From a virus (taxonomy: Duplodnaviria > Caudoviricetes): 64,000 bases of DNA. Below, one piece after another: positions 18,855 through 62,900 of this stretch; the first letter of the stretch is position 1, and every line of letters begins with the position of its first letter. The notes below the pieces were generated by a model, which made no database searches, was not told the origin of the DNA, and worked only from the letters and a program-made list of their open reading frames with translations. The position numbers and the translations under genes are program-made. Location of the stretch: the IMG/VR virus record IMGVR_UViG_2775507244_000004, one strand, 5' to 3'.

Positions 18855-19487
18855 ATGACTCGTAAGACCGCCACGTCCACCGATCCGAAGAAGCCGGCCG
18901 CGAGGAAGCGAGTCGCCGGCACCGCTGCGCGCAAGGCTGCAGCAAAAGCACCGGCCAACCCGTTCAAGATCAACAGCAAGGAATGGAACCGCGAGAAAGT
19001 CATGGATGCGGTGTGCAATGCGATCGCATCAAGCTCGAAGAGCATCACCACCATTCTGGCCGCCGGGCACCAAGGCCACCCGCTTCCCGATTATGCAACT
19101 GTCGCACGCTGGCTGAATGAGAAAGACGAGAACGGCGCCAACCCGATCTGCGACCAGTACGCGCGCGCGAAGGAGGCCCAGGCTGAGTTCATGGCCGAAG
19201 AGCTGGCCGAACTTCACAACAAGGCGTGGGTGCCTGTCCTCGATCCAGATACCGGGATGCCCATCGTGGTCGACGGCAGGCCGCTGATGACCGTCGATAA
19301 GGCGTCGGCAGCGATCGTGCGCTTGGAGGCCGACAACAAGAAGTGGCTTATGGGCAAACTCAAGCCCCGCCGCTTTGGCGACAAGGTCACGCAGGAGCAC
19401 GTCGGCGAGGGAGGAGGGCCGATCAAGGCCCGCATTGCCGTTGAGTTCGTGCGCCCGCCCGCTCGAAGCGAGGATGACGAGTCGTGA
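18855..19487 (+). CDS. terS: Terminase small subunit
   Basis: PDYATVARWL...QYARAKEAQAEFMAEEL...RLEADNKKWLMGKLKPRRFGDK. Confidence 0.9.
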   Translation: MTRKTATSTDPKKPAARKRVAGTAARKAAAKAPANPFKINSKEWNREKVMDAVCNAIASSSKSITTILAAGHQGHPLPDYATVARWLNEKDENGANPICDQYARAKEAQAEFMAEELAELHNKAWVPVLDPDTGMPIVVDGRPLMTVDKASAAIVRLEADNKKWLMGKLKPRRFGDKVTQEHVGEGGGPIKARIAVEFVRPPARSEDDES

Positions 19488-20761
19488 TGCTCGCCGAGCC
19501 GCCAATAGCAAAGCTGCAGATCACCGAGAAGCTGGAAGGGCTTTTCACGCCACGCCGCTACAAGGTGATGCACGGCGGCCGTGGTGGCGGGAAATCGTGG
19601 GCTGTCGCTGCCGCGCTGCTGGTGCTTGCCGCAGACAGGCCGCTTCGCATCCTGTGTGCGCGCGAGGTTCAGAAGTCGATGCGCGACTCGGTGCATCGCC
19701 TGCTGAAGGACACGATCGTGCGCCTTGGTCTTCAGGACTTCTACGAGGTGCTCGATACCGAGATCCGCGGCGCCAACGGCTCGATGTTCCTGTTCTCCGG
19801 CCTGCAGTCGCACACCGTCGATTCGATCAAGTCATTCGAGGGCGTGGACGTTGTGTGGGTCGAGGAGGCCCACGGCGTCAGCAAGAAGTCATGGGACGTG
19901 CTCATCCCGACCATCCGCAAGGACGGATCGGAGATATGGCTGACGCTCAACCCGGACATGGACACCGACGAGACGTACCAGCGATTCATCGCAACGCCGT
20001 CGCCCGACACCTGGGTTTGCGAGATCAACTGGCGCGACAATCCGTGGTTCCCGGAAGTGCTGAACCAGGAGCGGTTGAAGGCCAAGCGCTCGATGCTGCT
20101 GGAGGATTACGAGCACATCTGGGAAGGCAAACCGCGCACCGTAGCCGAAGGTGCGATCTATCGCCACGAGATCCAAGCGCTCTACGCCGAGAACCGCGTC
20201 GCGCGCGTGCCCTACGACCCGCTGCTGCCGGTGCACACCGTGTGGGACTTGGGGTGGAACGACGCCATGACCATCGGCTTCGTGCAGCGCTCGCCAATGG
20301 ACGTCCGGATCATCGACTACATCGAGGACTCGCACCGCACGCTCGACTGGTATGTGGCGCAGATCGAGCGCCGCCCGTATCGCTGGGGTCACGACTATCT
20401 GCCGCACGATGGCCGCACGCGCAATTTCCAGACGGGAAAGAGCACCGAGGATCTTCTGCGAGAAATGGGGCGTAAGCCGATCGTTCTGGCACAGACAAGC
20501 GTCGAGGAAGGCATCAAGGTCGCCCGCATGCTGTTCCCACGGTGCTATTTCGACCAAGACAAGACCAGCCGGCTGCTGGAGTGCCTGAAGCGCTACCGCC
20601 GCGCGCTGCACACGCAGACTGGCGAACCCATGGGGCCGCTGCACGACGAGTTCAGCCACGGCAGCGACATGTTCCGCTACATCGGCCAAGCCGTTCCGGT
20701 GATGCCGGCCTCGATGGAACAGAACTACGAAGAACCCCCGCCGCCCGACTGGCGCACCTGA
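19484..20761 (+). CDS. terL: Terminase large subunit (PBSX type)
   Basis: HGGRGGGKSW, CAREVQKS, VWVEEA, WDLGWND, SHGSDMFRY. Confidence 0.95.
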   Translation: MMLAEPPIAKLQITEKLEGLFTPRRYKVMHGGRGGGKSWAVAAALLVLAADRPLRILCAREVQKSMRDSVHRLLKDTIVRLGLQDFYEVLDTEIRGANGSMFLFSGLQSHTVDSIKSFEGVDVVWVEEAHGVSKKSWDVLIPTIRKDGSEIWLTLNPDMDTDETYQRFIATPSPDTWVCEINWRDNPWFPEVLNQERLKAKRSMLLEDYEHIWEGKPRTVAEGAIYRHEIQALYAENRVARVPYDPLLPVHTVWDLGWNDAMTIGFVQRSPMDVRIIDYIEDSHRTLDWYVAQIERRPYRWGHDYLPHDGRTRNFQTGKSTEDLLREMGRKPIVLAQTSVEEGIKVARMLFPRCYFDQDKTSRLLECLKRYRRALHTQTGEPMGPLHDEFSHGSDMFRYIGQAVPVMPASMEQNYEEPPPPDWRT

Positions 20762-20779: not shown

Positions 20780-23023
20780 ATGCTCGCAGAACAGACCCAC
20801 ACCACCGACGAAACGGAACTGCAACCGGCCGACGCGCCGATCACCGTCGACGAGTTCGCCCAGTTCGTGCGTGAGGCGATCAACCAGCAACCCTGGCGCG
20901 CGAACGCGGACAAGGAAGCAGACTACGCCGACGGCAATCAGCTGGATAGCGAACTGCTGCAGCGGCAGAAGATGCTCGGCATTCCGCCGGCCAAGGAGAA
21001 CATCATCGGCCCGGCCATTCGCGCGGTGTGCGGCTACGAGGCCAAGACGCGCACGGACTGGCGCGTGACGCCCGACGGCGACCCGCAAGGGCAGGACGTC
21101 GCCGACGCGCTGAACTACCGGCTCAACCAAGCCGAACGGCACAGTCGCGCCGATCGCGCGCTGTCCGATGCTTTCCGATCTGCCGCGACCGTCGGAATCG
21201 GCTGGGTGGAGGTCACGCGCGCCTCGAACGCGCTCCAGTTCCCGTACAAGTGCCGCGCAGTCCACCGGAACGAAATCTGGTGGGACATGCAGAGCGTCGA
21301 GCCGGATCTGGAAGACGCCCGCTGGCTGTTCCGCCGTCGCTGGGTGGATAGGCAGCGCGCTGCGCGCATGTTCCCCGAGCACGCCACGATCATCATGCAC
21401 TCCGCGGACAAGTGGATTGCGGATCTGGCCGGCGAAATGCTCGAAGGCGGGCAGTCAACCGGGCTCGCCCAGGCCATCGACGCAGAGCGCGCATGGACCG
21501 TGCAGGAAGACAACTGGTACAACGACGAGAACCAGCAGGTTTGCCTGACCGAGCTCTGGTATCGCCGCTGGGCCGAGGTCACAATCCTGCGAGCGCACAC
21601 CGGCCGCGCTGTCGAGTACGACCCGAGCAACCCGGCCCACGATGCGATGCTGCATGCTGGGCGTGGCGTGCTGGAGCGCCAGATCATCCCGAAGATGCGC
21701 CGCGCCTACTTCATGGGGCCGCACTGCCTGCATGACGGCCCGACGCCGCACCCGCACCAGCACTTCCCCTACGTGCCCGTGTGGGGGAACCGCGAGGACA
21801 TGACCGGGATTCCCTACGGGCTCGTGCGCGACATGCTGTTCCCGCAGGACAACCTCAACGCCTCGATCAGCAAGCTGCGCTGGGGCATGTCGGCGACGCG
21901 CATCGAGCGCACAAAGGGCGCGGTCGCCATGACGGATGAGGTGTTCCGGCGCATGGCTGCCCGCGTCGACGCCGACATCACCCTAGATGCGGACCATATG
22001 GCCCGGCCCGGCGCGCGTTTCGAGGTCAAGCGCGACTTCCAACTGAATGCGCAGCAGTTCGATCTGATGAACGACTCGCGCCGCGCAATGGAGCGCGTCA
22101 GCGGGATCACGGCAGCCTTCCAGGGCCAGAAGGGCACCGCAGCATCGGGTATTCAGGAGCAGACGCAGCTTGAGCAGTCCCAGGTCGCCGTCGCCGATCT
22201 GATGGACAACTTCAAGGAAGCGCGGCGCATGGTGGGCGAATTGCTGATGTCGCTCATCATCACCGACATGGGCAAGGCCGAGCAGACCATCGTGATCGAG
22301 GGCGACACGCTCAATCCGCCGCGGACCGTCGTGCTGAATCACCCCGAGATCGATCCCGACACCGGCATCCAGTACCTGAGCAACGACGTGCAGCGCACCC
22401 GCCTGATGGTCGCCCTCGAGGATGTGCCCAGTTCCAGCAGCTTCCGCGCACAGCAACTGGCCGCACTGTCTGAGTCGGTGAAGTCACTGCCGCAAAAGCT
22501 TCAGACGGTCGTGATGCCGTTCATGATCGACCTCATGGATCTGCCGCGTAAGGATCAGATCGTGCAGGCCATTCGACAGGCGACGGCGCAGGCGGACCCC
22601 GAGCAGTTGCGCGAGCAGATCAAGCGCGAACTGATGTTCGAGCTCAAGGAGCGCGAGCTCGCTATCAAGGAATCCGAGAGCGAGGCCAAGATCAAGAAGC
22701 TGATGGCCGAAGCGGTGCAGACCGGCGTGCAGGCGGCATTCAGCGCGATGCAGGCCGGCGCGCAAGTCGCACACATGCCGCAGATCGCTCCGATCGCCGA
22801 CGTCGTGATGCAGGGAGCAGGCTACAAGCGCCCGAATCCGATGGGCGACGACCCCAACTTCCCGCAGCCGACCGCGCCCGCCGTCGCAGAACAGGCCCAG
22901 GCTGCGCCCGAGGTGCGGCAGAATACCAGCCCGACGTTCCCCCCGGTGCCGGACGAGGGCGCTTCGCCCATGGCAGGGATTGAGACGCCGGAGACGCGTG
23001 ACAATCTCACGGAACCATCGTAG
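20780..23023 (+). CDS. Portal protein (P22/podovirus-like)
   Basis: DYADGNQ, FPYVPVW...PYGLVRDMLFPQDNLN, ASGI; follows terL. Confidence 0.88.
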   Translation: MLAEQTHTTDETELQPADAPITVDEFAQFVREAINQQPWRANADKEADYADGNQLDSELLQRQKMLGIPPAKENIIGPAIRAVCGYEAKTRTDWRVTPDGDPQGQDVADALNYRLNQAERHSRADRALSDAFRSAATVGIGWVEVTRASNALQFPYKCRAVHRNEIWWDMQSVEPDLEDARWLFRRRWVDRQRAARMFPEHATIIMHSADKWIADLAGEMLEGGQSTGLAQAIDAERAWTVQEDNWYNDENQQVCLTELWYRRWAEVTILRAHTGRAVEYDPSNPAHDAMLHAGRGVLERQIIPKMRRAYFMGPHCLHDGPTPHPHQHFPYVPVWGNREDMTGIPYGLVRDMLFPQDNLNASISKLRWGMSATRIERTKGAVAMTDEVFRRMAARVDADITLDADHMARPGARFEVKRDFQLNAQQFDLMNDSRRAMERVSGITAAFQGQKGTAASGIQEQTQLEQSQVAVADLMDNFKEARRMVGELLMSLIITDMGKAEQTIVIEGDTLNPPRTVVLNHPEIDPDTGIQYLSNDVQRTRLMVALEDVPSSSSFRAQQLAALSESVKSLPQKLQTVVMPFMIDLMDLPRKDQIVQAIRQATAQADPEQLREQIKRELMFELKERELAIKESESEAKIKKLMAEAVQTGVQAAFSAMQAGAQVAHMPQIAPIADVVMQGAGYKRPNPMGDDPNFPQPTAPAVAEQAQAAPEVRQNTSPTFPPVPDEGASPMAGIETPETRDNLTEPS

Positions 23024-23028
23024 ACACC

Positions 23029-23058
23029 GAACAGCCCGTCAAGAGCGGGCTGTTCTTC
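23029..23058. terminator. Terminator after portal
   Basis: GAACAGCCCG...CGGGCTGTTC hairpin then TTC. Confidence 0.7.
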
Positions 23059-23241
23059 GATTAAGGCGCCACCTTCAGGTCAGTCGCCGGGGCCGCATTC
23101 GAAGCGGACATGCAACTCTTCGTTCTGTTTGGGGCGGTGAGAAGTGTCCCTGAACGGAAATTCAGCACTATATTTTGTATGGCAGAACGATTGATACACG
23201 AGGATTTTTGCAACCCTCTGTTTTTAAACTAATTTATTTTT

Positions 23242-23270
23242 TTGCGCTAGCGGCGAGTTAGCGCTATTCT
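23242..23270 (+). promoter_or_regulatory. Moron sense promoter P1 with palindrome
   Basis: TTGCGC-17-TATTCT after AT-rich UP-like tract; GCGCTA-N9-TAGCGC overlaps. Confidence 0.6.
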
Positions 23271-23281
23271 TCTGCTCGTTC

Positions 23282-23405
23282 AAAAAGCAAAACCCGAGCC
23301 AGCTTTTCATAGCAGACTCGGGTCTGAATTGGGTGTGCTGAGTTGCAGGTAGCGGTCTTCATGGTCATGAAGAGTTACCTGCGCTTTAAATATTTTCTCA
23401 ACAAC
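23282..23405 (-). ncRNA. Antisense sRNA 1
   Basis: Minus promoter TTGACG-18-TATAAT (23441-23412); internal stem 23345-23382; terminator hairpin 23292-23323 plus TTTTGCTTTTT. Confidence 0.7.
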
Positions 23406-23625
23406 CAAAGAATTATAGGGGGGTCATCGCTGTTTCGTCAAGGGTTTTCAGAGCGCACACCTAAGGGCGATCGCCTGCCCATTCTTCAATGGTAAGGACA
23501 GGTTATCCATAAGGCGTGCTTCCATCTGGCGGCAATCTGGTTTGTGCGGCTCGCTTCGTGCTCGAGGTGAATATGGCAGGCCGGGCGCAGCTAGTGTGAA
23601 TGGGATACGTGAGAGCGTCCGTAGG

Positions 23626-23654
23626 TTGACTGGTGTTATCTAAATGGATAAGAT
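23626..23654 (+). promoter_or_regulatory. Promoter of XRE/ImmA operon with palindromic operator
   Basis: TTGACT-17-TAAGAT; TTATC-N6-GATAA at 23636-23651. Confidence 0.7.
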
Positions 23655-23728
23655 CGTTGCCGTATGGAAAACATTGTGTGCTAAAAGGTTTTCCGAGAGC
23701 GCATGGTGTATGGCGAAAGGAGCCTGGC

Positions 23729-24106
23729 ATGAAACTCACACCGTTTGGAGAGTTGGCGCGCCAACTTAGGATGAAAAACGGCTTGACCTTGAAATCGATG
23801 GCCGAAGCAATGGGTATCAGTTCTGCGCACCTCAGTTCGATTGAGTTCGGGGAGAAGAAGCTGAACGACAAACATACCCAGTCGGCGCTGGACTATTTCT
23901 CCGTCTTGTGTAGCCCGGAGCAGCTAGGGGCGCTGCGGACCGCTGCAGATATGTCCAAGGATTTCGTGAGCACTGAGGCTCTGAATGGAGATGCGAAACA
24001 CTTGGTGGCAGCGTTCGCCCGCAGGCTTCAAGAAGGGGCCACCCCTTCTGACGAATTTACCCGGTGGCTATCGGAGCTGGATAAAACGGGAGACTCAAGA
24101 AAATGA
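23729..24106 (+). CDS. XRE-family HTH regulator
   Basis: FGELARQLRMKNGLTLKSMAEAMGISSAHLSSIEFGEK; AAGGAG RBS. Confidence 0.9.
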   Translation: MKLTPFGELARQLRMKNGLTLKSMAEAMGISSAHLSSIEFGEKKLNDKHTQSALDYFSVLCSPEQLGALRTAADMSKDFVSTEALNGDAKHLVAAFARRLQEGATPSDEFTRWLSELDKTGDSRK

Positions 24107-24696
24107 CAACGATTTGCGTCGGGGGGCGACTGAGATCCCCCACTGGCTACAAGGTTGCGCCGCAAAGTTATGCAAAGCTTGAGGCGATAGCGGACGAACT
24201 GAGGGGGGTGCTCCCCACTACACCCGGTAGTTCGATCCGCTTGGATTGTGTGCGGATTCTTGAAGAGCTGTTACCACACGCTGGCTACAAGTTGAAGGTC
24301 GAGGAGGTGGACAAAGTGCATGACTGCGCCGCCTTTGCGGTGCCACAGAAACAGTTGATCGTCTTCCGGGCGGATATCTACGATTTGGTCCATGAGGATC
24401 ATGTCTTTGGGCGCAGCACGGTTGTTCATGAGATGTCGCACATCGTACTGAACCACGCGCTCACACTCCAGCGAGGCGCTGGAGCTGAATCGCACCGGTT
24501 TTTCGAGGACTCCGAATGGCAGGCAAAGGCTCTCACCGCTGCGATCATGATGCCCATCGAGGCATGTAACTCGATTGCATCGGTCGCTGACCTCGCTGAG
24601 GCATGTGGAACGAGTGTTGAGAGTGCAAGTTATCGTCTAGCGCGGCTTGCGAAAGACGGCATTCTCAGGCGCCTGCCACACGGCCTAGGAGTGTGA
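24103..24696 (+). CDS. ImmA/IrrE-family zinc metallopeptidase
   Basis: RSTVVHEMSHIVLNH (HExxH), SEWQAKALTAAIMMP, C-terminal HTH-like LAEACGTSVESASYRL. Confidence 0.9.
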   Translation: MTTICVGGRLRSPTGYKVAPQSYAKLEAIADELRGVLPTTPGSSIRLDCVRILEELLPHAGYKLKVEEVDKVHDCAAFAVPQKQLIVFRADIYDLVHEDHVFGRSTVVHEMSHIVLNHALTLQRGAGAESHRFFEDSEWQAKALTAAIMMPIEACNSIASVADLAEACGTSVESASYRLARLAKDGILRRLPHGLGV

Positions 24697-24714
24697 GAGT
24701 GACCTTAACACTCC

Positions 24715-24825
24715 AAAAGAAAAGAGCCCAGAAGTGTTCCACCACTTCCAGGCTCCTTGGTAAGGCGAAAAAGGGTCTGCCTTACCTCTCTGACCGCACT
24801 TTGTCAAGAGTTGTCTTGGGGAAGA
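24715..24825 (-). ncRNA. Antisense sRNA 2
   Basis: Minus promoter TTGCCC-18-TACACT (24861-24832); stem GGTAAGGC/GCCTTACC 24759-24786; terminator hairpin 24724-24755 plus TTTTCTTTT. Confidence 0.65.
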
Positions 24826-24898
24826 CACTGAAGTGTAGTACTGACGAAGGCGCCAGGGCAAGTCAAAACCCTCTAACGTTCTATCGGAGGTGCCTATC

Positions 24899-25018
24899 AT
24901 GGCGTACCCCTTTGTTAAGGACGTCTTCGTGCGCGCATACCGCCGGTTCCGTTTCGGAAGGTGGGAAACGGTGGTTCAGCACTGGCGTTCGTCTCCTGGT
25001 CAACTCAGTCTCTTCTGA
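24899..25018 (+). CDS. 39-aa basic micro-protein ending in QLSLF
   Basis: GGAGGT RBS; MAYPFVKDVFVRAYRRFRFGRWETVVQHWRSSPGQLSLF. Confidence 0.75.
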   Translation: MAYPFVKDVFVRAYRRFRFGRWETVVQHWRSSPGQLSLF

Positions 25019-25045
25019 TTGATCCGGACGGCGAATAGCCGGCTC

Positions 25046-25144
25046 AAAGGAAAGGGCGCCCAAGCTGCAACTTGGGCGCCCCGAGGTAAAAGGGTACTGA
25101 ACCGACGGCCCAGTATCCCTCTCACGAATGCTTTGGCAAAAGCG
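25046..25144 (-). ncRNA. Antisense sRNA 3
   Basis: Minus promoter TTGCGA-18-TAGCAT (25180-25151); stem 25091-25120; perfect 11-bp terminator hairpin 25054-25081 plus TTTCCTTT. Confidence 0.65.
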
Positions 25145-25219
25145 AGCACTATGCTACGCCGTATTCGGCAGGTCTCGCAAGGTCGTGAGTGTTGATAGCG
25201 CCTGACCTGTGAGGTTTAT

Positions 25220-25366
25220 ATGGTACAGAGCGACCTTTTCGATCCCTCGGCTGAACAAGGCGATGTCATCTTCAGGATGACAATCCGCCTCAAGAACGGC
25301 AAGGTGATTCGTCGCGCAAACGGACGTCCGTTCAGGATCGTTGTCCGCCGCAAGCGCAACGACTGA
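25220..25366 (+). CDS. 48-aa basic micro-protein with N-terminal QSDLF
   Basis: GAGGT RBS; MVQSDLFDPSAEQGDVIFRMTIRLKNGKVIRRANGRPFRIVVRRKRND. Confidence 0.75.
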   Translation: MVQSDLFDPSAEQGDVIFRMTIRLKNGKVIRRANGRPFRIVVRRKRND

Positions 25367-25413
25367 TGGCCTGCAACACACGCCGAACTTGTTCGGAGCC
25401 TCAATGAGGCCAA

Positions 25414-25437
25414 GCCCGCCCCGTGCGGGCATTTTTT
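25414..25437 (+). terminator. Terminator closing the moron
   Basis: GCCCGC-N5-GCGGGC then ATTTTTT. Confidence 0.75.
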
Positions 25438-25504
25438 CGTGCCTAGATCTCACGACAGGCTGTTGAAAGCAAGAATGCGCGTAGCGCGACTACTCATTCC
25501 GACC

Positions 25505-25546
25505 CCCCTGTAGGGCTGGAGCTTCACGTGTTCGCCCAATGACACT
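25505..25546 (+). promoter_or_regulatory. Late promoter motif copy 2
   Basis: CCCCTGTAGGGCTGGA-20nt-GACACT before scaffold gene. Confidence 0.75.
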
Positions 25547-25586
25547 GCCTGCGCATTGTTGCAAGCAGCTTTGGAGAAGCGCGCAC

Positions 25587-26555
25587 ATGAGCATGACCGC
25601 CGCCGAACTTCTGGAGTCCGCCCTGGATGGGACGCTTCAGGAAGATGACGCACACACCGAGCAGTCGCACGCCGCCGTCACTGACGACGCGCCCGCTGCC
25701 GTCTCTACCGAAGGCCAAGACCAGCCGCAGGCCGGCGCCACCGAGACGGAAGTCGAGGGCGCACCGATCCTGAGCAAGTCCGGCGCCTACACGATCCCCT
25801 ACGAGAAGCTGGCCGAGGCCCGTAACGAGCGCAACGCATTGCGCGAGCGCGTCGAGCAGCTTGAGCAGCACATCGCAGGGCTGTCCTCGCAGCAACAGCA
25901 GAACATCGCAACCGCCCAGGCCGATGCACAAGACCGCGCAGCCGCCGGTCAAGGGCAGACCGCAGCCGATGCGAACCTCGCTGCCGCTACGCAGGCCATG
26001 GCCGAAGGTGTCGACGTGTCGATCTTCGGCGATTTCTCGGAAGAGGATCTTGCGAAGGGGGTGGCCGAGTTGAATCGCCGCGCAATGGCCCAGGTCGAGT
26101 CTCGACTGATGGCCGCGCTGGACGATCGCCTCGCCCCTCTTCGTGCCCAGGAAGCCAAGACCGCGACGAGCGCCCACTACGACGCCATCTACGCCGCCCA
26201 CAAGGACGCGGACGAGATCGTCGAGTCGGCCGAGTTCGCGTCGTGGCGCGACAGTCTGCCCGCATTCGCCAAGTCCGGCGTCGAGCACGCGCTGACCAAG
26301 GGCTCCGCGCAAGAGGTGATCGAGGTCTTCAACGCATTCCGCGCAACCAAGCCGCAGCAGCCCAGTACCGCACGCACCGCGCCGGAGGCGCCCGCCCTTC
26401 GCGTGCCCAACTCCCTGTCCGATGTGCCTGGAGCGGCGCCGATGGACGAAACGCAGCAGACCCTCGCCGCAGCCGGGAATGCAGCCGCATTGCTCGAACG
26501 CATGGGCTCCATGTCCTCGGACCGCATCGACGACCTGCTGGACAACCTCATCTGA
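25587..26555 (+). CDS. Capsid scaffolding protein
   Basis: Acidic N-terminus, TIPYEKLAEAR coiled coil; precedes capsid gene. Confidence 0.75.
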   Translation: MSMTAAELLESALDGTLQEDDAHTEQSHAAVTDDAPAAVSTEGQDQPQAGATETEVEGAPILSKSGAYTIPYEKLAEARNERNALRERVEQLEQHIAGLSSQQQQNIATAQADAQDRAAAGQGQTAADANLAAATQAMAEGVDVSIFGDFSEEDLAKGVAELNRRAMAQVESRLMAALDDRLAPLRAQEAKTATSAHYDAIYAAHKDADEIVESAEFASWRDSLPAFAKSGVEHALTKGSAQEVIEVFNAFRATKPQQPSTARTAPEAPALRVPNSLSDVPGAAPMDETQQTLAAAGNAAALLERMGSMSSDRIDDLLDNLI

Positions 26556-26575
26556 ACGCATAGGAGTCATTGAAC

Positions 26576-27871
26576 ATGACCACCAAGACCAACGTCCCGG
26601 CAACCGCCGCGGATAAGCAGCGCGTTCTCGCCGCGGGCCTCTTCGCCCAGTCGATGCAACGCAACTCCACGTTGGGCCGCCTGTCCGGTCCCATGCCCAA
26701 GGGCGAGGCGCGTGCCGGCGAGGTCGTGCGCAAGCAGACCTCCACCGACCTGCCGATCGTCAAGACCGTCGATCTGTCCCGCGGCAAGGGCGACGAGGTC
26801 GAGTTCCAGTTCCTGCAGCCGGTTGGCGCCTACCCGATCATGGGTAGCCGCACCGCGGAAGGGAAGGGCACCGGCCTCTCCTACGACACGTCGCGGGTTC
26901 GCGTGAATCAAGCCCGCTTCCCGGTAGATCTCGGCGACACCATGACCAGCCTGCGCTCGCCGGTGGACTTCCGCCGCATGGGCCGTCCGGTTGCGCAGTC
27001 GCTGATGGACAGCTACATGGACCAGTCTCTGCTGGTGCACATGGCTGGCGCGCGTGGCTTCCACGACAACATCGAGTGGCGCGTGCCGGTCGCATCGCAC
27101 CCCGAGTTCGCCGAGATCGCCATCAATGCAGTGCGCGCCCCGACGAAGAATCGCCACTTCATCGCCGACGGCACCAACGGCATCGCAGAGTTCTCGCAGA
27201 CGGGTGGCGTCGTGGATCTGGCGACGACTGACGGCCTGAGCATGGACGTGGTCGATTCCATTCGCACCGTGATGGAGTCGATCGCCCTGCCGCCGCCGGC
27301 AGTCAAGATCCCCGGCGACGTCGTGGCCGAAGACTCGCCGCTGCGCGTTCTCCTGGTTTCCCCTGCGCAGTATCACGCCTTCTCGCAAGATCCGAGCTTC
27401 CGCCAGTTCCAGGCCAATGCCCTGGCGCGCGCGGCCAAGGCCAAGAATCACCCGCTGTTCCTTGGCGAGTGCGGCCTGTGGAACGGCATCCTGCTGATGA
27501 AGATGCCCAAGCCGATCCGCTTCTACGCGGGCGACGCCCTGAACTACTGCGACAGCTTCACCAGCGAGACGGAATCGACCGCCACGGTCAACGCCAGCTT
27601 CGGCACGACCCATGCGGTCGACCGCGCAATCCTGCTGGGCGGCCAAGCGATCGCTCAGGCGTTTGCCGCATCCGGCCACGGTGGCATGCCCTTCTTTTGG
27701 AAGGAGAAGGAGTTTGACCACGACGACAAGATGGAGCTGTTGATCGGCGCTATCCAGGGCATCAGCAAGGTTCGCTGGCTGGTCGATCAGGGCAACGGCG
27801 AAAAGCACTTCACCGACCACGGCGTCGTCGCCATCGACACCGCCGTTTCCATCATCGGCGCTCGCAAGTAA
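26576..27871 (+). CDS. Major capsid protein (N4-gp56/DUF4043-like)
   Basis: DLSRGKGDEVEF, LLVSPAQY, NHPLFLGECGLWNGIL, RAILLGGQA, DHGVVAIDTA. Confidence 0.88.
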   Translation: MTTKTNVPATAADKQRVLAAGLFAQSMQRNSTLGRLSGPMPKGEARAGEVVRKQTSTDLPIVKTVDLSRGKGDEVEFQFLQPVGAYPIMGSRTAEGKGTGLSYDTSRVRVNQARFPVDLGDTMTSLRSPVDFRRMGRPVAQSLMDSYMDQSLLVHMAGARGFHDNIEWRVPVASHPEFAEIAINAVRAPTKNRHFIADGTNGIAEFSQTGGVVDLATTDGLSMDVVDSIRTVMESIALPPPAVKIPGDVVAEDSPLRVLLVSPAQYHAFSQDPSFRQFQANALARAAKAKNHPLFLGECGLWNGILLMKMPKPIRFYAGDALNYCDSFTSETESTATVNASFGTTHAVDRAILLGGQAIAQAFAASGHGGMPFFWKEKEFDHDDKMELLIGAIQGISKVRWLVDQGNGEKHFTDHGVVAIDTAVSIIGARK

Positions 27872-53983: not shown

Positions 53984-56900
53984 TGAGACTGCGCAGCCGG
54001 TCCTTGTCGAGCAGCCGACGCCGGCCGTCGCACAGCAAGCCGAAGCCTCCGCTCCGACTGCCGCCCCCGTCGCAGACGACCTCCGCCGTCAGTTGCAGGA
54101 AGTAGAGAGCAAGATCCTCGCTGCCGCGCCTGACGCCATGGGCGCAGGAGGTGGCGACATCCAAACGGCAATGAAGAGCCGCAAGGTTCCGGTGACGCTG
54201 AAGGCACAGCGCAAGCGCATCAAGGAGCAGCTGCAGCAGGCCAATGTGGCATTTGCCCAAGGGGTACAGTCCGTCGATGCGCCCGAACGTTTCGAAGTGG
54301 CTGCGCGAGCGCAAGAAGCGAGCGGACAGGAAGGCGAAAGGAGATTCGCCCCCGAAACCGGAACGCTCGGAATCCCCCGGGCAGAAATGCCGCAAGTGCC
54401 ATCCAAGTCCCATGGCGGACTGGTCAAGCACCTGAACGCCCAAGGCATCGCGCACGAAACGACGAGCGTCGATGCGGCATCGCTCAAACCGACGCAGGCC
54501 GAGTACTCGCCGGAGAAGGTCGAGGCCGCGAAGACTGCCGCAGGCGACAGGGCTGTGATCGTCTCCAGCGACGGCCATATCGTCGACGGGCACCATCAAG
54601 CCCTGGCCGCCGCCGAACAGGGGAAGCAGGTCAAGGCCATCGTGCTTGACGCGCCGATAGACCAGGCGCTGGAGGCGGTGAAGAACTCGCCGAGCGCTCA
54701 GGCTGCAACGCCCGCAACTAGCCCGCGTAGCGAATCGGCCCAGCCCGGTGCCGAGCAGCCCGAAGTTCTTGAGTTCACGACGCTCAAGGACCGCGACGGC
54801 AACACCGTCACGGTGCGCACCGCCGACCTGTCGAGCGCCCGCGAACGCATGCCGATGTTCACGAAAGACGGCAAGCGCAAGGCGACGCATATCCACCGCG
54901 ACAACCTTGATCCCACCGGCGAGAAGCAAGCCGAGGGCGCGAAGGAGATCGCCGCCAATCCGCTTTTCAACGTCATCACCGCGAAGGACGGCAAGGCGTT
55001 TGCCATCAAGGCCGCAGCCTCGCGCGAACTCAACGCGCGCGGACTGGCTGAGACGCACGAGGTTGTGCCGGCTGGAGCCGTGCAGGCCGGGATGAAGGGC
55101 TACGTGGTGCGCAAGAAGGCCGACGTTTCGAGAACTGCCGATGCAGCGCAGGGCCCGAGCGCAGCGCTTCCGGACTTCAGTGTCTTCTACAACGACGAGA
55201 ACGGCGTCAGGTGGGGCATCCCGTATGCCATGCGCCAAGGCCAGCAGCCGAAGGACATCAAGCCCGAGTTCAGAGGCGACTGGGTCCGCCTGAGCGGGGC
55301 AAAGTGGTCAGGAAACCGGGATCTGATGCCTGCTGAGCAGCAGGCAATGAGCGAACGTCTGCAGCCCGGCGAGTGGGTTGATGTTGCTCAGCCGGCCGCT
55401 GCGGTGACGGAGGGCGACACGCAGACGGCAGAGGGCGGGAATGGAGCAACAGGAGATCAGGACGCCCGTCAGCCCGAAGCGTTCGTTTCAGCTCCAGACG
55501 GCTCCATCGACTTCGGTGAGATCACGCCGGAGATGGCGCTGGCGATGCGCCGACAGGCGGGGAAGATTCGGCTTCAGCGAGGTGATGACAGCTTTGGCGA
55601 GCATCACATCGAGATCCGACATGGCGACGACATTCGACGCCTTGGATTCAACGATGTTGCCAGCTTTGTTGCTGACATCGCGCGCAACATCAATCAGTTG
55701 TGGCAGCCGGGGAAAACCGCTCAACTCGTCGCGATTCACGAGCTGGCAAACGATCGTGTGATGTTCGTTGAGTTGCGCGGAGCGCAGGACGAAGGCGGCG
55801 ACTATTACACCGTGCGGTCTGCCTTCCCTGCGCGGAAGGGCTTCATCAAGAACAAAGGGTGGAATCTGCTTTGGGAGGATGGCCGGGCCCAGCCATCAAC
55901 CAACGCCAGCTCGTCGGCCCCGTTTGCTGAACCGGCCCAGGATATTGCTGGGGGGCCGGCCACGATCCCATCGGGCCAAAGCAGTGATGAAACTGTAGCA
56001 CAACGGCCCGCTGCAGGAGACGTGCCTGATGTTCGCCGCTCGCCCGCCAGCCAGAACGCCCGCACTGCCGACGTCGAGTTCCCGCTGCAGGAGGCCCAAG
56101 CCAGCTACTCCGGCATCTCGCACAGCGGTACCAGTCGCGGCAAGGCTGACGCTGATGAATTCCATGCTTATATCGACGCGGCCCGCGACGCCGGCTTGGC
56201 TGTGGCCACCACTGCCGCGCAGAAGGCAGCCGTCGAGCAAGCAACCGCCGACCTCCGCGCCGAGTACCTGCGGCAGTACCGCCGCCTGATGAGCGTCCGC
56301 TCGGGCACCTACAGCGGCTATGTCGCGGGCCGCTCCGGCTTGAACAGCAAGCAGGCCGACAAACGCAACAGCGCCTATGACCGCGCTATCGACACCTTCG
56401 TCGCCTGGCAGAAGGCCAGCCAGGATAGCCCGCGTAAGGCCGCCATGGCTGCACGCACGCCAGAACAAATCCAGGCTGACCAGCAGGCCGCTGAATCGGC
56501 TCGCCAAGAGAAGGAGGGCCGCAAGGAGTCCCGCGATCGCAAGCTGATGGAGCGCATCCTGTCATGGAACAAGGGCGGCGAGCCGGTGGCCATCACCAAG
56601 ATCGCCAACCTGGCAGGCGTGAACTACGGGAAGGACGGATACCCGACCAGTATCAAGCTGGCGCCGACCGATGGCAGCACACTGACTGACGACAAGTTCG
56701 ACCTGGCCGCGCTGTTTCGCGAAAAGGGCATGAGCGTGCCTGACTCGAAGCGCCGAGTGCGCGAACTGGTGGATGCGGTGAGAGCCGAGTCTGCCGCCGA
56801 CGGCGAAGCCAGCCTTTCCGCTCAGCACGAGGCGCTGATGGCGTCCGTGCGCACCGGCAAGGCCACGCCCGAGGCGTTCAAGGCATCGTTCGACCAGGTT

Positions 56901-59900
56901 GTCTCCAACGAGGCCGCCATCAAGGCCGAACTGAGCGCAAAGACCAAGGCCGAACTGCTGCGCGATGGCGGGCCGTACCTGCAAATGCGCTACGCCAACG
57001 AGAAGAAAGACGGCGTGGTCGACGCCGTCTATCGACAGATGATCGGCGAGTACGCACTTGGCGAGACCGTGAGCTACGGCATTGCGCGCGATAGCTACCA
57101 GAAAGCGGTGCGCCGCATGGTCGAGGCGACCGACGCCGACAAGCTGGCGCAGTACGTCCGTGACCGCGAGGCGGCCATTCGAGAGGCTGAGGTCCGCCGC
57201 ACGGCGCGCGCTGAGGCAATGGCGAACCCGCAGACGCTCAACGACTACCGCAGCCTGATGAGCGAGCACATCCGGGAAGGCAAGACGCGGCATGAGGCGT
57301 TTCTGATGCTGACCCCGGAGCAGCGCATCCGCTACGACGAGCTCGAAGCAGAAGGAACGCGCGAGGCCCGCGAGGCGCGCAAGCGTGCTGCGCAAAATGA
57401 GGTTCGCGCAGCCGGCCAGACAACGGGCGGGCAGATAATCGCAACAAAGCACACGCGCGACGGGCATGACCTTTTCGTCGTGCAACTGGCCGACCGCCTG
57501 AGCAGGGAGGATTACAACACCGTGTTGGCTGGCGCAAAGCGGCTGGGCGGGCGGTATTCAACGTTCCGTGGCAACGGCGCCGTGCCCGGCTTCCAGTTCA
57601 GGACGCGCGAGGATGCAGAGGCATTCCTGAAGCTGGCGGGCGGCGACGTTGAGGCAGCGAAGGATCAGGTCGAGCAGCGCCGTGACGCATTCGCCGACGA
57701 TAAGAGTCAGACCGCAGCCGAGCGCTTGGTCGAGATGGCTGACCGCATGGAGCAGGAAGCCAACGCCGAAGAGAGCCGCGATCGCAAGGCCAACACCGCG
57801 CGCCGCGCCCGCTTTGCCTCGGCGGCGCTCAACGCGGCGGCGGCACAGAAGGCAACGGCCCGGACGATGCGCAACATCGCGCAAGCGATCCAGGGCGGCA
57901 AGGCGAAGTTCCTCGATGCCGTGCGCACGCGCACGCAGGTCGATGCGCTGCTGGGCTACGTGCGCACCGCCAAGGACAATGAACTGCGCGCGAAGTACCC
58001 GAGCTACGCTGAACAGGAAAAGCGCAGGGGCGAGCCGGCGACCGCCGAGACGGCAGGCTTTGCCGAGTTCCCGAGCTACACCGCGTTCCGCTCCGATCTT
58101 GCGATGCTCGGCCGCCAGATGCTAGAGATCGACGGCACGAAGAAGCTCGGCCAGAAGCTGATGAGCGTGGCCGATGACGTGACTGACGCCTATCTTGAGT
58201 TCGCCCGAAATAACATCCGTGCGGTGTCGCAGTTCGGGCGCGGTGACGCGCTGGCCGAGTTCGCCAGCCGCGATGACGCCGAGCGCGCCATCCGCAGGAG
58301 TGGATTGGTCGGCAAGGCCATCGTGCTGCCGGTCAAGCGCGGCCAGAACCGCGTCATCCTGAGTCCGTCCGAAGCGATGAGCCGAAAGGTGTGGGCGGGC
58401 GATGGTGACAAGCGCATCACCTTGTCGGGCGAGTTCGGCAAGGAGCTGGTGGAAGCCATCGGGCGCCGCGGCAACAAGGCCAACGGCCTTTCCGTGCCGT
58501 GGCAGTTCCAGAACGCCTACGACCGCCGCAAGCTTCTTTCCCGAATCGGCATCGAGACGCCGAGCGAGTTCCGTTCGGCGCTGCGGGAGGTGATCGGACT
58601 GCAAGAAACCGCCGTGGCCAACAAGGTCCGCGAGATGGAGCTCGCGATGGTCGGGCGCCGCGCGGACGGGCTGGACTTCTTCCCGACGCCGGCTGAGATC
58701 GCCGACCAAATGGTCGAGGCGGCGGACATCACGCCCGACATGGCAGTGCTTGAGCCAAGCGCCGGCATGGGGCACATCGCCGACCGCATCCGGGAGGCGG
58801 GTGCAGAGCCGGACGTGGTGGAGATTTCCGCCGATCGCCGCGAACTACTGGAGGAAAAGGGCTACCACGTCGCCGAAGTGAACGACTTCATGAACATGGA
58901 GCCGCGCAGCTTCTTCACCTACGGCGACATCTTCCGCGCGCCTGATGGCAAGCAAGGCGTCTTGCGTGGCCTAGGGGGCATGGGCAGCCAGCGCGTTCGA
59001 CTCGAAGACGAACAGGGCAATCGTCTTGGGCTGTACAACCGTGACGAGGTTGTAGGGGTGGCGCATCGCGGATCGTGGAGCGGCTACGACCGCATCATCA
59101 TGAACCCGCCTTTCAGCGACCGCCGCGACGCCGAGCATGTGCAGCACGCATTCACGCTGCTGCGCCCTGGCGGCCGGATCGTGGCGATCATGGGCGAAGG
59201 GGTCTTCTTCGGTCAGGACAAGCGTGCACAAGACTTCCGCGACTGGCTCGAATCCGTTGGCGGCACGTCGGAGAAGCTGCCCGAAGGCTCGTTCATGGAC
59301 CCCGCCCTTCCTGTGCAGACGGGCGTCAATGCGCGCATGGTGGTGATCGACCGCCCGGCCGTTGATGGCGGGGACCGGCAGCCGGGAGATGCTGACCCTG
59401 AAGTGGCCTTCTCGGCGACCTCCCTGCGCGATCGCAACGCACTGCTGACCGGTATCACCGAGAAGGGGCTCGTCCGGGCGATGCGCCTGCAGTTCGGCGA
59501 ACTGTCGGAGGTTACGCAGAAGATGCTGGAGCGTGGCCGTGCCGGCAAGCGTGGCGGCGCCGTCGTCATCAACACCGCGGACATGCGTGAAGTTGGCCGG
59601 ATCGTGGCCGAGAAGACCGGCCGCGACCTCGACTCGACGATGCGCAAGTTCTCTACGGCCGGTGTCGTCAACGGCTTCTACGATCCCAAGTCGGGCCTGA
59701 CCTTCCTTGTCGGCCCGAACCTGAATCCTGTCACCGCAACCGCAGTGCTGCTGCATGAGGTGATGCACGGCCAGCAGCGCCAGAAGATCGACCAGCGCGC
59801 GATGGAAATGGTGCGCGGCCGGCAGTCGCTGAAAGACCCGGCGATGCGCGCCTTCTTCGATCGCGTAGCGCGTCGCATGGCAATGGCCGGCGAATCGAAC

Positions 59901-62900
59901 AAGGCGTCTGAGGCATCCGCCTACATCGTCGAGCAGGCTGTGATCGAAGGCCGGAGCGCGGGCTACCAGTTCGCCGACAATGCCTTCGTGCAGTGGGCTG
60001 ACAAGACGCTCGGGAAGCGTATCGGCGACTTCCTGCGCTCGTTCCTTGGCATGGTCCGCACCTGGGCGCTGCGCAACGGCCTGGGGGCGAAGACCATGAC
60101 CGTCGACGACTTCGTCGGCTACGCAATGGCTGGGCTGGATAAAGCCGCCACTGGCGAGGTGCGTGGGCGCTCTGTGACGGTTTCTGCAAGCATGGCGCAA
60201 GACGAGCAGTCGCAGGACGTCCAGTTCAGCCGCGCCAGCATGAAAGGCGCCCAGGCTCTCGCCAAGAACATCGGCGACGGCCTGAAGTCAATCACCGTCC
60301 ACGACGTGAAGAGGGCCGGCAAGCACAAGCTGACCGACTGGTTGAAGCTGGGTCTGCAGTTCCTTGGCCGCCGGCAACTGGTCGACGTCTATGGCGACGT
60401 GCTGCCGCTGGCCGAGTACGACCGCCTCGCCGCGCAGATGGAGGCCGACAAGAACGATGTCGGTGCATCCGCCGATGATCTCGCGCGCCGCTGGGGCAAG
60501 CTGCCTGACGAGGGCAAGCTGGCCGAACTGATGCACGACGCGACTCTGGCGCAGATCGACGCGGATGAGGCAGTCGAGTACATGCCGGGCGACGATCTGC
60601 CCAAGACCCGCATGCTCAAGGCGCAATTTGCGCAACTCTCGCCGGAGGCGCAGAAGGTCTATCGGGAGGCTCGCGACCACTACCGCAAGCATCATGCGGA
60701 GGTGCGGCAGGCCATCACCGATCGGATCATGCGCAGCGAACTCCGAGAAGAGCGGCGTGCGGAGCTCCTGAAGCGCATGGATGACGACTTTTTCAAGTCG
60801 ATCAAGGGCGTGTACTTCCCGCTCGCCCGCTTCGGGCAGTACGTCGTGGTGACGAAGGACGAAAACGGCAAGGTTGCGAGCGTGTCGCGCGCCGAGACGA
60901 TGGCCGAGGCGGAAGCCATGCGTCAGGAGATGGTCAAGGCGTTCCCGGCGAAGGACGGGTATCAGGTCGGGCGCGTCATTCTGAGCAAGGAGTTCATCGC
61001 TGGACGAGACATGGTCGGGCGCGGCTTCATGTCCGAACTGTTCAACGCGCTCGATGAGCAGCAGCTTGATCCTCGCGTGATGGCTGAACTGGAAGACACG
61101 CTGGGCCAACTCTACTTGTCGTCGTTGCCCGATCTGTCGTGGGCGAAGCACGGCATCCACCGCAAGGGTACGCCCGGCTTCAGCCAGGATGCCCGCCGGG
61201 CCTTCGCGCAAAACACCTTCCACGGCGCGCGCTACCTTGCCAAGCTGCGGTACGGCGATCAGATGCAGGCCGAGCTCGAGCGCATGCAGAAGCACGTCGA
61301 CGAGATGAGCGCGCTTGAGGACTTCGACCAGCCTGCGGCGCAGCGTGTCGTTGATGAAATGAACAAGCGCCACGAAGCGATGATGAACCCGAAGAGCAAC
61401 CCGCTCTCGACGGCGCTGACCAGCTTCGGTTTCGTCTACTACTTGGGCATTTCGCCGGCCGCCGCGGTTGTGAACCTGTCGCAGACGCCGCTCGTCGCCT
61501 ACCCGGTGCTGGGTGCTAAGTGGGGATTCAGGAAGGCTGGCACCGCCCTGATGACGGCCTCGAAGGAAACGATGGAGGGCAAGAACGATCTTCGCTCGCG
61601 CCTGAAGAACGAGGATGAGATCGCCGCCTACGATGAGGCGGTGCGAACTGGGGTGATCGACGTGACCATGGCGCACGACCTCGCCGGCATCGCCCAGGGC
61701 GAGGACGCCAAGGTAATGTGGAAGATCCGCCCGGTAATGCGCGCCGCGAGCTTCCTGTTCCACCATGCAGAGCGCTTCAACCGGCAGGCTACATTCCTGG
61801 CTGCCTACCGTCTTGCGCGGGATGCCGGGGCGAAGCACGACACGGCCTACGCGCAGGCGGTGAAGGCGACCTACGACGGACACTTCGACTACTCGGCCGG
61901 CAACCGGCCGCGGGTTATGCAGGGCAACGTCGCCAAGGTTGTGCTGCTGTTCAAGCAATACGCGCAGAACATGATCTACACGATCGCGCGCAATGCCTAC
62001 CAATCGGTCAAGGGCGAGTCGCCCGAGGTGAGGCGCGAGGCGCGCAAGGTCTTTGCCTCGCTGATGACCATGCACGCGGCCGCGGCCGGCGTGCTGGGCC
62101 TGCCGATGGTTGGCACGCTTCTGGCGCTGGCCTCTGCGCTGGGTGGAAGCGACGATGAGCCGTGGGACGCCGAGGTTGCCTTGCGCAACATGCTGGCAGA
62201 CGCCTTTGGGCCGAAAGCCTCCGAGGTGATCGCCCGCGGCTTCTCGCGTCTGACGCCGTGGGACGTCTCCGGGCGCGTGGGTTTGGACAAGCTGCTGCTG
62301 CCGGACGTGAATGAGAGCCTGGAGGGTCAGCGCTGGGCCGAAGCCTTCGCCACGGCCATGCTTGGCCCGGTGATCGGCATGGGCGTGAATGCGGCCAAGG
62401 GCGCGCAAAAGATGTCAGACGGCGATTACGCCCGCGGCTTGGAGGACATGCTGCCGATCTTCGCGCGCAACCCGATCAAGGCATACCGCCAGTACAGCGA
62501 AGGTGAAGTCGACCGGACTGGCGTGGTCATCAAGGACGAGGTGAGCTTGGCCGGCGTGCTCGGGCAGGCGTCCGGCTTCTCGCCCTCCGAGATCCGCCTT
62601 GCCTTCGAGGGTCGTAGCGCGCTGATGAGCGCGGATCGACGGCTCAACGAGCGCCGCCAGGACTTGGTTACGCAGTTTGCGCGCGCCGCGATGGAGCAGG
62701 ACCAGGGCGGCATGGTCGAGGCACGTAGCGCGATCGCCGAATTCAACAAGGTCAATCCAGGCCGCCGTATCACTCCGCCGCAGTTGTGGCAGAGCGTGCG
62801 CAATCGAGAGCGCCGAATCATCGAGGCAGAGGAGGGGGTGTACCTGCCGCGCACGCGGCGCGACGTGCTCGATGTGGGCAGGTTTGCGGAAGCCCTGTGA

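Follow-up and report, generated by a model that had tools for sequence, protein, structure and literature searches.

A mobile-element micro-protein with a terminal clamp-binding motif and a putative antisense-gated leader

How might a phage-borne protein of only 39 residues engage the replication machinery of a bacterial host, and how would such a product be kept in check? This question is raised by a small gene at positions 24899-25018 of a 64,000-nucleotide stretch of the virus record IMGVR_UViG_2775507244_000004 (IMG/VR; Duplodnaviria, Caudoviricetes), the whole of which is referred to here as the window. A preliminary description of the locus had pointed to an open reading frame (ORF) with a strong GGAGGT ribosome-binding site, an arginine- and aromatic-rich core and the C-terminal sequence QLSLF, all of which are borne out by reading the sequence. 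It had further proposed a nucleic-acid-binding hairpin tethered to the sliding clamp DnaN, possibly a replication inhibitor or toxin. The reading favoured here, with modest confidence, is that of a gated clamp-cleft micro-protein, that is, an antisense- and leader-controlled product that would dock on DnaN and compete with the clients of the clamp.

The 39-residue product of 24899-25018 on the plus strand is MAYPFVKDVFVRAYRRFRFGRWETVVQHWRSSPGQLSLF. The same frame is opened at GTG 24890 in the ORF listing (42 aa); ATG 24899 is the start kept across alignments of homologues. The micro-protein contains six Arg, one Lys, one Asp and one Glu, and nine of its 39 residues are aromatic. Its computed layout consists of a basic/aromatic core of 25 residues followed by Pro-Gly and a β-clamp-binding motif at the C-terminus, the conserved core V.VR.Y.R.RFG..E.V..H.RS.P giving way to the tail PGQLSLF. 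Coding evidence was drawn from 80 loci, the best 80 of 209 confirmed genomic places, which hold 74 distinct sequences. Variability at codon positions 1, 2 and 3 is 0.128, 0.104 and 0.401, and 65% of differing codon pairs are synonymous in frame, compared with 9% and 6% in the shifted frames. This excess at third positions, together with the synonymous bias, indicates that the frame of the ORF is under protein-level selection. Insertions and deletions in the tails of homologues likewise preserve the reading frame. Judged by the way its sequence has evolved, 24899-25018 is a real, translated gene of a mobile-element micro-protein family.

That family is widespread on phages, plasmids and chromosomes, and it is unnamed. 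The micro-protein matches PHROG 21154 (function unknown; E 1.5e-7), with residues 6-33 aligned to profile positions 18-45 of 47, so that the profile stops two positions past residue 33, before the tail. It has no match in Pfam, NCBIfam or PADLOC and none below E 0.8 in a sequence search of the PDB, and its matches in the ESM Atlas are 'hypothetical' clusters only. A phmmer search of 1.84 billion cluster representatives returned 42 proteins at E ≤ 1e-3, from which three long low-complexity repeat proteins were removed as spurious. The 39 unbiased representatives that remain are small proteins sharing the V.VR.Y.R.RFG..E.V..H.RS.P core. Profile searching extended the set to 322 proteins at E ≤ 1e-3, none of which carries a Pfam domain and the named ones of which are called 'hypothetical protein'. 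The 209 genomic places, confirmed by pattern scans of species genomes, lie mostly in beta- and gammaproteobacteria (Pseudomonas, Variovorax, Rhodoferax, Xanthomonas, Bordetella, Thiocystis), and further copies were found on 61 viral contigs and in 17 plasmid records. Distribution among close relatives is patchy: the gene occurs in three of 41 genomes, namely the genome to which the window belongs and two of 24 from its genus, with none in 16 from other genera of the order. Longer or fused forms were also sought, and 13 candidates passed among 7999 scored. All were rejected as over-long ORF calls or as chimeras at IS1 or IS1595 insertion sequence (IS) junctions, and the micro-protein stands alone. 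In two such metagenomic chimeras (P0170 and P0171) half of the micro-protein is fused to the frame of a transposase of IS1595 or IS1 type, pointing to IS insertions into the micro-protein gene. On a Limnohabitans plasmid (copy at L182:3501-3617) RefSeq records a HigB and a 405-aa 'transcriptional regulator' but no feature over the micro-protein gene, which suggests that the family is largely unannotated. A conserved 51-aa ORF rich in Lys, Ser and Ala, beginning MSSKKPTNEHTSARVAS, lies about 74 nt 3' of the micro-protein gene at L063:5197-5355 and at about 25 other loci; it is not found in the window and belongs to no Pfam family.

Clamp-binding peptides also occur in a six-residue variant of the QLxLxL type. 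The five-residue form QL(S/D)LF is the bacterial clamp-binding consensus at C-termini (excerpt of PMC9690074). Among the 699 ORFs of at least 30 aa in the six frames of the window, the micro-protein is the single carrier of QL[SD]LF. When the residues of all ORFs were shuffled, no strict C-terminal motif arose in 200 rounds (<0.005 per window), and the loose form Q[LM]x[LF]F is expected at a C-terminus 0.035 times per window. The preliminary description had let its proposal hang on whether homologues retain the motif, and they do: a clamp-type motif ends 25 of the 39 unbiased representatives and is carried by 118 of the 120 best profile matches. Of these 25 motifs, eight fit Q[LMFY]x[LF]F and 17 are six residues long (e.g. 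QLSFDF, QLAFDF); they end 0-3 residues from the C-terminus, usually after Pro-Gly. The motif is universal among the 80 recognised genomic copies (71 five-residue, nine six-residue, ending 0-1 residues from the C-terminus), a count biased by the presence of PGQ in one of the search patterns, the residues after Q not having been imposed. In the nearest homologue, at 79% identity, SSPGQLSLF is retained and the N-terminus has diverged. Conservation of this kind excludes chance as an explanation for the motif. The genome that houses the window encodes a DnaN of its own (L007:1498-2604, minus strand).

Two precedents bear on what a clamp motif at a free terminus might do. The toxin SocB has a clamp-binding motif with which it occupies the clamp cleft and so arrests the elongation of replication (excerpt of PMC9690074). 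In phage Mu, the protein MuC uses terminal QHDLF and QPDLF motifs to bind DnaN, and its over-production is lethal through disturbance of the control of DnaA by Hda and the clamp (excerpts of PMC12867686). Family members that lack the tail were observed in other settings. An Stx1 phage and Salmonella phage Oslo each have one located between cI and N; Ralstonia phages have copies too, 4-kb mobilizable Escherichia coli plasmids carry one next to an 'ATP-binding protein' gene, and in Enterobacter phage ENT4 one lies beside a 742-aa AAA-type ATPase ORF. Such surroundings hint that the core by itself may be expressed in lysogens or have a link to defence.

Conservation is not confined to the protein. 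The 160 nt 5' of the ORF are conserved as DNA across loci whose upstream genes differ, and the region is predicted to be a plus-strand leader of about 140 nt with co-varying helices. Its first hairpin, P1, exposes the loop AAGGGT (24771-24776), complementary to a pyrimidine tract that can also pair with the Shine-Dalgarno sequence (SD) and is therefore called the anti-SD tract. The second helix, P2, encloses the hairpin P2a (24813-24826) and a second hairpin region. Pairing between tract and SD is predicted in both the minimum free energy and the centroid structure. Because MAFFT alignments put the hairpins out of register, RNAalifold recovered hardly any consensus from them. It was replaced by a comparison of cognate with non-cognate duplex energies in 47 diverse leaders, with 5000 permutations, and by a hand-written structure. 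Cognate strands pair more stably in P1 (-8.88 versus -7.15 kcal/mol), in P2 (-11.61 versus -6.40 kcal/mol, from 43 and 46 distinct strands) and between the P1 loop and the tract (-10.61 versus -8.10 kcal/mol), and in each of the three cases none of the 5000 permutations reaches the cognate mean. In an alignment of 22 sequences, 85.7% of cells pair under the hand-written structure; sliding the partners by 1-3 columns lowers this share to 37-53%. The same alignment has a covariation score of 0.192, against 0.124 in shuffles, none of 500 of which reaches the observed score. The loop-tract helix (helix 2) is 93.1% paired, and three of its six pairs change on both sides (e.g. AU 13 / GC 9). The leader generally accompanies the tail: among 42 phage or viral loci with a recognised ORF, of 66 examined, 14 have both, seven have the tail without the leader, 20 have neither and one has the leader without the tail.

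On the opposite strand the leader carries the parts of a predicted small RNA gene. A conserved, predicted sigma-70-type promoter lies on the minus strand. At aligned, invariant columns of the minus strand TAnnnT is found in 45 of the 47 leaders, the other two having, by eye, TAGAAT three bases off, and in 41 of 47 a -35 element beginning TTG precedes it by 15-19 nt. Extended TG -10 promoters number ten, all with 16-nt spacers. An alignment-free scan found the promoter pattern on the minus strand of 60 of 74 unique leaders and on the plus strand of 13. The predicted antisense RNA could base-pair with P1, with P2a and with the 5' strand of P2. It folds at -49.7 kcal/mol (z -3.88, equalled by none of 200 shuffles) into a stem-loop complementary to P1 and a terminator. 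This terminator, hairpin P0, sits left of P1 and 24 nt past the stop codon of an upstream peptidase gene; across loci its left flank is A-rich (at least 5 of 9) in 45 of 68 and its right flank T-rich in one of 71. Since the antisense RNA lacks the 3' strand of P2, P2 cannot belong to it, and the plus-strand leader itself is likely to be structured. Overlap between antisense RNA and mRNA presumes that the leader is transcribed, and the covariation of P2 supports such transcription. Because P0 has no plus-strand U-tract and no conserved plus-strand promoter was seen, the mRNA may plausibly arise by read-through from the upstream operon. Neither leader nor antisense RNA matches a family of Rfam 15 in the window and six representative loci.

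Two further observations concern the minus strand and hairpin P0, respectively. Just 3' of the micro-protein ORF the minus strand holds a 13-pair terminator-like hairpin followed by TTCCTTTG (25053-25082 and 25112-25139 region), with a promoter-like TTGCCA, 16 nt, GATACT about 30 nt upstream of it on that strand; this arrangement may mark a very short minus-strand RNA or a barrier to antisense read-through. The ribosome-site region of the upstream XRE gene (23717-23727, AAGGAGCCTGG) is an 11-nt perfect inverted match to the 3' arm of P0 (24748-24758), of which, by a rough estimate, about one would be expected by chance in 2.5 kb.

Leader, antisense unit and small ORF together give a locus built like a type I toxin-antitoxin (TA) module with a soluble, predicted clamp-targeting product. 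This architecture of leader and antisense RNA lends indirect support to the possible toxin role raised in the preliminary description. By computation a single tract has two mutually exclusive partners, the P1 loop or the SD, and the antisense unit covers P1. In the proposed mechanism, formation of the loop-tract pseudoknot would free the SD. The antisense RNA would bind P1 and prevent the pseudoknot, so that translation would stay shut. Where mRNA is in excess of antisense RNA, the protein would be made and would dock in the DnaN cleft. Once abundant, it would compete with DNA polymerase III, Hda and repair polymerases at the clamp, and this client competition would stall or derail host replication, as with SocB and over-expressed MuC. 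Read-through from a stress-responsive XRE/M78 operon may lift the mRNA past the antisense threshold. Somewhat short of probable in our estimation, but worth stating, is the broader proposal that the family forms a new antisense-RNA-gated class carried on phages, plasmids and islands in beta- and gammaproteobacteria. Its members would be soluble, 39-residue plugs of the clamp cleft, switched by a pseudoknot and often placed behind damage- or infection-sensing XRE/M78 genes, and would act to brake replication or to abort infection.

Several results weigh against a clamp-directed toxin under such control. On the protein side, a hydrophobic stretch, usual in type I toxins, is missing from the product, and many tails read QLSFDF, with Phe at the textbook Leu position. 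The remaining 14 of the 39 unbiased representatives stop 4-11 residues past the core without a motif, so that the core must have a role independent of the clamp. On the RNA side, pairing between the anti-SD tract and the SD covaries weakly (-7.77 cognate versus -7.36 kcal/mol non-cognate, the cognate mean being reached by 228 of 5000 permutations), and neither the permutation tests nor the covariation controls correct for relatedness among the sequences. Folded alone, the window's plus-strand leader does no better than its shuffles (z -0.77). The predicted antisense RNA overlaps neither SD nor ORF, and a search within 420 nt at 75 unique loci revealed no conserved promoter on the plus strand. 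An M78 gene is present at only 43 of the 80 loci. A single metatranscriptome run (0.09 share of sampled words) gave a contig at 25219-25300 only and no coverage of ORF or leader; this may be listed here as well, yet it is evidence neither way.

The data can be read in other ways. One alternative, which we consider unlikely, accepts binding to DnaN but sees the micro-protein as a helper for which the clamp is a landing pad, bringing the basic core to replicating or nicked DNA, with the RNA gate setting the dose only. Such a helper might couple transcription, replication or partition of the element to passing forks, in the way MuC does for Mu late transcription. The terminal clamp motifs of MuC and Mor serve transcription activation, lethality appearing only on over-production (excerpts of PMC12867686). 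Presence of the family on phages, plasmids and chromosomes would suit this role, as would the tail-less members, whose retention of the core implies a function of its own. However, a core of 25 residues without a recognisable DNA-binding family is small for a regulator, the tight combination of antisense RNA and SD sequestration is typical of harmful products, and no target site is known. We hold with still less conviction that the tail is not a clamp motif at all but a recognition tag for another partner, such as a degradation signal for a host protease or the M78 peptidase, or some other docking peptide. In its favour are the shortness of the motif, the FxF ending of many variants (QLSFDF, QLDFGF) and an adjoining M78 peptidase gene in just over half of the loci. 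Yet both canonical forms, QLxLF and QLxΦxΦ, share one position, invariably a free C-terminus, and 37 of the 80 loci have no M78 gene.

Two further alternatives concern the nature of the locus as a whole. That the ORF is incidental, and that the conserved element is RNA only (leader plus antisense RNA), is very improbable. The RNA parts are indeed strongly conserved, but third codon positions are about three times as variable as positions 1 and 2, the synonymous share is 65% against 6-9%, tail indels stay in frame, and of 21 tail-less homologues, which are conserved as proteins, 20 lack the leader. Practically no credence can be given to membership of the plasmid-borne XCV2162/ptaRNA1 type I TA family of beta- and gammaproteobacteria, ptaRNA1 having reportedly been named in a 2010 Rfam paper. 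Distribution of that family is similarly erratic and its arrangement cis-antisense (excerpt of PMC5367252). XCV2162, however, is a Pfam 'Plasmid_toxin' with a predicted membrane domain (excerpt of PMC5367252), whereas the micro-protein has no Pfam match. Nor does any Rfam family, ptaRNA1 included, match the leader or the antisense RNA in the window and the six representative loci, and membership was rejected on these grounds.

The window carries the morphogenesis block of a P22-like prophage (Table 1). Between its portal and scaffold-like genes lies the low-GC island that holds the locus, a 2.5-kb insert, a moron, which carries the whole module; the island DNA showed no similarity to phage records. 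Upstream of the micro-protein gene, the island encodes an XRE-type regulator, the true start of which is likely ATG 23729, and a putative ImmA/IrrE-type (M78) metallopeptidase, the two genes overlapping by 4 nt. The M78 call on PF06114 (E 4.3e-4, 20.5 bits) is under the cut-off of 22. At the 43 M78-bearing loci, the window included, the M78 gene is on the same strand and ends 167-489 nt 5' of the micro-protein gene. It is a short peptidase gene, as in the window, at 14 of them and a fusion of about 416 aa between a helix-turn-helix (HTH) and an M78 domain at 29 (PF06114, E 3.7e-6). Absence of an M78 gene from that position in the other 37 suggests that the module is autonomous. HigB genes (PF09907, E 3.9e-29) cluster upstream in 27 loci. 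No convincing operator-like repeats common to the XRE promoter region and the leader were found.

Table 1 Positions of the micro-protein gene, its predicted RNA elements and the genes around them (window coordinates unless a locus prefix is given)
Feature	Position	Strand	Remarks
Micro-protein gene	24899..25018	+	39 codons; ATG 24899, stop ends 25018
Shine-Dalgarno GGAGGT	24886..24891	+	7 nt 5' of ATG
Hairpin P1 (GGTAAGGC / GCCTTACC)	24759..24786	+	helix 1, 96.2% paired
Helix P2	24788..24858	+	24788-24806 pairs with 24843-24858
Pyrimidine tract ACCCTCT	24868..24874	+	alternative partners: P1 loop (pseudoknot) or SD
Predicted sigma-70-type promoter	24832..24861	-	-35 TTGCCC (24861..24856), 18-nt spacer, -10 TACACT (24837..24832)
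Predicted antisense small RNA	24711..24825	-	~115 nt; start inferred from -10 box
Hairpin P0, predicted intrinsic terminator of antisense RNA	24721..24758	-	16 pairs, then TCTTTTGG
Low-GC island	23024..25538		45-57% G+C versus ~65% around; between portal and scaffold genes
XRE helix-turn-helix gene	23633..24106	+	HTH_31, HTH_3 E ~1e-6 (above Pfam cut-offs); PADLOC capH E 1.5e-5
ImmA/IrrE-type (M78) metallopeptidase gene	24103..24696	+	197 aa; HEMSH; PADLOC capP E 3.6e-8
Second small ORF	25220-25366	+	48 aa; PHROG 4533, E 1e-4; terminator 25414-25430
Terminase large subunit gene	19484-20761		PF04466
Portal gene	20780-23023		PF16510, E 1.5e-109
Scaffold-like gene	25539-26555		PHROG 479
Major capsid gene	26570-27871		PF13252
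Tail-less homologues of enterobacterial phages/plasmids	L004:2968-3102, L005:2974-3099, L181:3249-3329, L002:3001-3096

Downstream of the micro-protein gene, the island holds a second small ORF of 48 aa, the opening residues of which, MVQSDLF, conform to the consensus Qx[DE][LM]F reported for N-terminal clamp motifs of Mor and MuC (excerpt of PMC12867686). Its single close proteobacterial homologue starts MVQKDLF, and two homologues from Bacteroidota are without the motif. The locus may thus hold two clamp-motif micro-proteins side by side. As a conserved partner of the first, the 48-aa ORF was rejected, being present at none of the 80 loci. A weak match to Rfam isrK over the terminator of this ORF (25369-25435, plus strand; 22.2 bits versus a gathering threshold of 50, E 0.062) is probably due to chance. 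At the other end of the island, a terminator-like hairpin lies 3' of the portal gene (23244-23264, plus strand). A near-consensus promoter-like site (TTGACG, 18 nt, TATAAT; 11/12) points leftward from 23412-23441 on the minus strand in the island's lowest-GC part, and no ORF with a family match was found near 23244-23441. Within or beside the prophage, an ORF of 2935 aa (54093-62900, plus strand) carries an LPD39 'large polyvalent protein' domain (PF18858, E 7.7e-38).

A search of the literature, with subscription journals and supplements outside its reach, found no type I-style toxin that targets the clamp. The parts newly found here are the leader and the antisense RNA gene, and the link to M78 peptidase genes is likewise new. 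With the gene mostly unannotated and the RNAs absent from Rfam, hundreds of genomes would carry a regulatory unit that has gone unseen. If the broader proposal of a new gated class is true, this would be the first type I-style toxin acting on the replisome. Should the tail bind DnaN, the micro-protein would be a natural, minimal and widespread clamp inhibitor on mobile elements, offering a compact tool and a lead peptide against a validated antibacterial target. It would also represent a new route by which phages and plasmids seize or stop host replication, and the locus would be a type I-like module with a non-membrane toxin. The leader, for its part, would be a clean case of pseudoknot-controlled translation outside plasmid rep genes.

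Known systems share individual features with the locus. In type I TA modules such as Hok/Sok, Ldr/Rdl, SymE/SymR and Zor/Orz, as here, a small ORF is preceded by a long, folded 5' leader that hides the SD, a cis antisense RNA has its own promoter and terminator (both predicted in the present case) and the module is carried by mobile elements. The toxin in most, though not all, type I families is hydrophobic and membrane-spanning, SymE and RalR being non-membrane exceptions. With six Arg and one Lys, the micro-protein is basic and soluble and has neither a hydrophobic run nor a membrane helix. The antisense RNA of the present locus also covers the far leader only, not SD or ORF.

The closest parallel to the predicted switch is the control of rep in IncI-alpha and IncB plasmids, where a leader loop pairs with a tract adjacent to the SD and opens it, and where the antisense Inc RNA prevents that pairing. 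Loop-tract pairing near the SD and an antisense RNA to the hairpin, as predicted here, are the shared features. In the locus analysed here, though, the regulated gene encodes no replication initiator, no leader peptide coupling was seen, and the activating direction of the pairing is our inference. ImmR/ImmA, DdrO/IrrE and CapH/CapP resemble the upstream gene pair in that an HTH gene overlaps the gene of a putative HExxH peptidase, found here directly upstream. The putative controlled gene differs, being a same-strand, downstream micro-protein gene and not a divergent defence operon.

With regard to the product, SocB of the SocAB system is neutralised through a protein partner and not by RNA, whereas the present locus has a predicted antisense RNA and no protein antitoxin. 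SocB of Caulobacter acts at the clamp cleft by way of its clamp-binding motif (excerpt of PMC9690074); the micro-protein shares such a motif and, as proposed here, would share the mode of action. No resemblance in sequence to SocB was seen, no search aimed at it having been made. Likeness to the β-clamp clients Pol II, Pol IV, Hda and Mu MuC/Mor lies in QL[SD]LF or the six-residue form at a free terminus, conserved across the family. MuC among them is a phage protein that is lethal by way of the clamp when over-produced (excerpts of PMC12867686). The micro-protein differs from all of these clients in its length of 39 residues, in having no enzymatic or known DNA-binding domain and in its unrelated sequence, and its binding to the clamp is a prediction. 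While belonging to none of these families, the locus resembles type I TA modules and, at the level of the protein, SocB or over-produced MuC.

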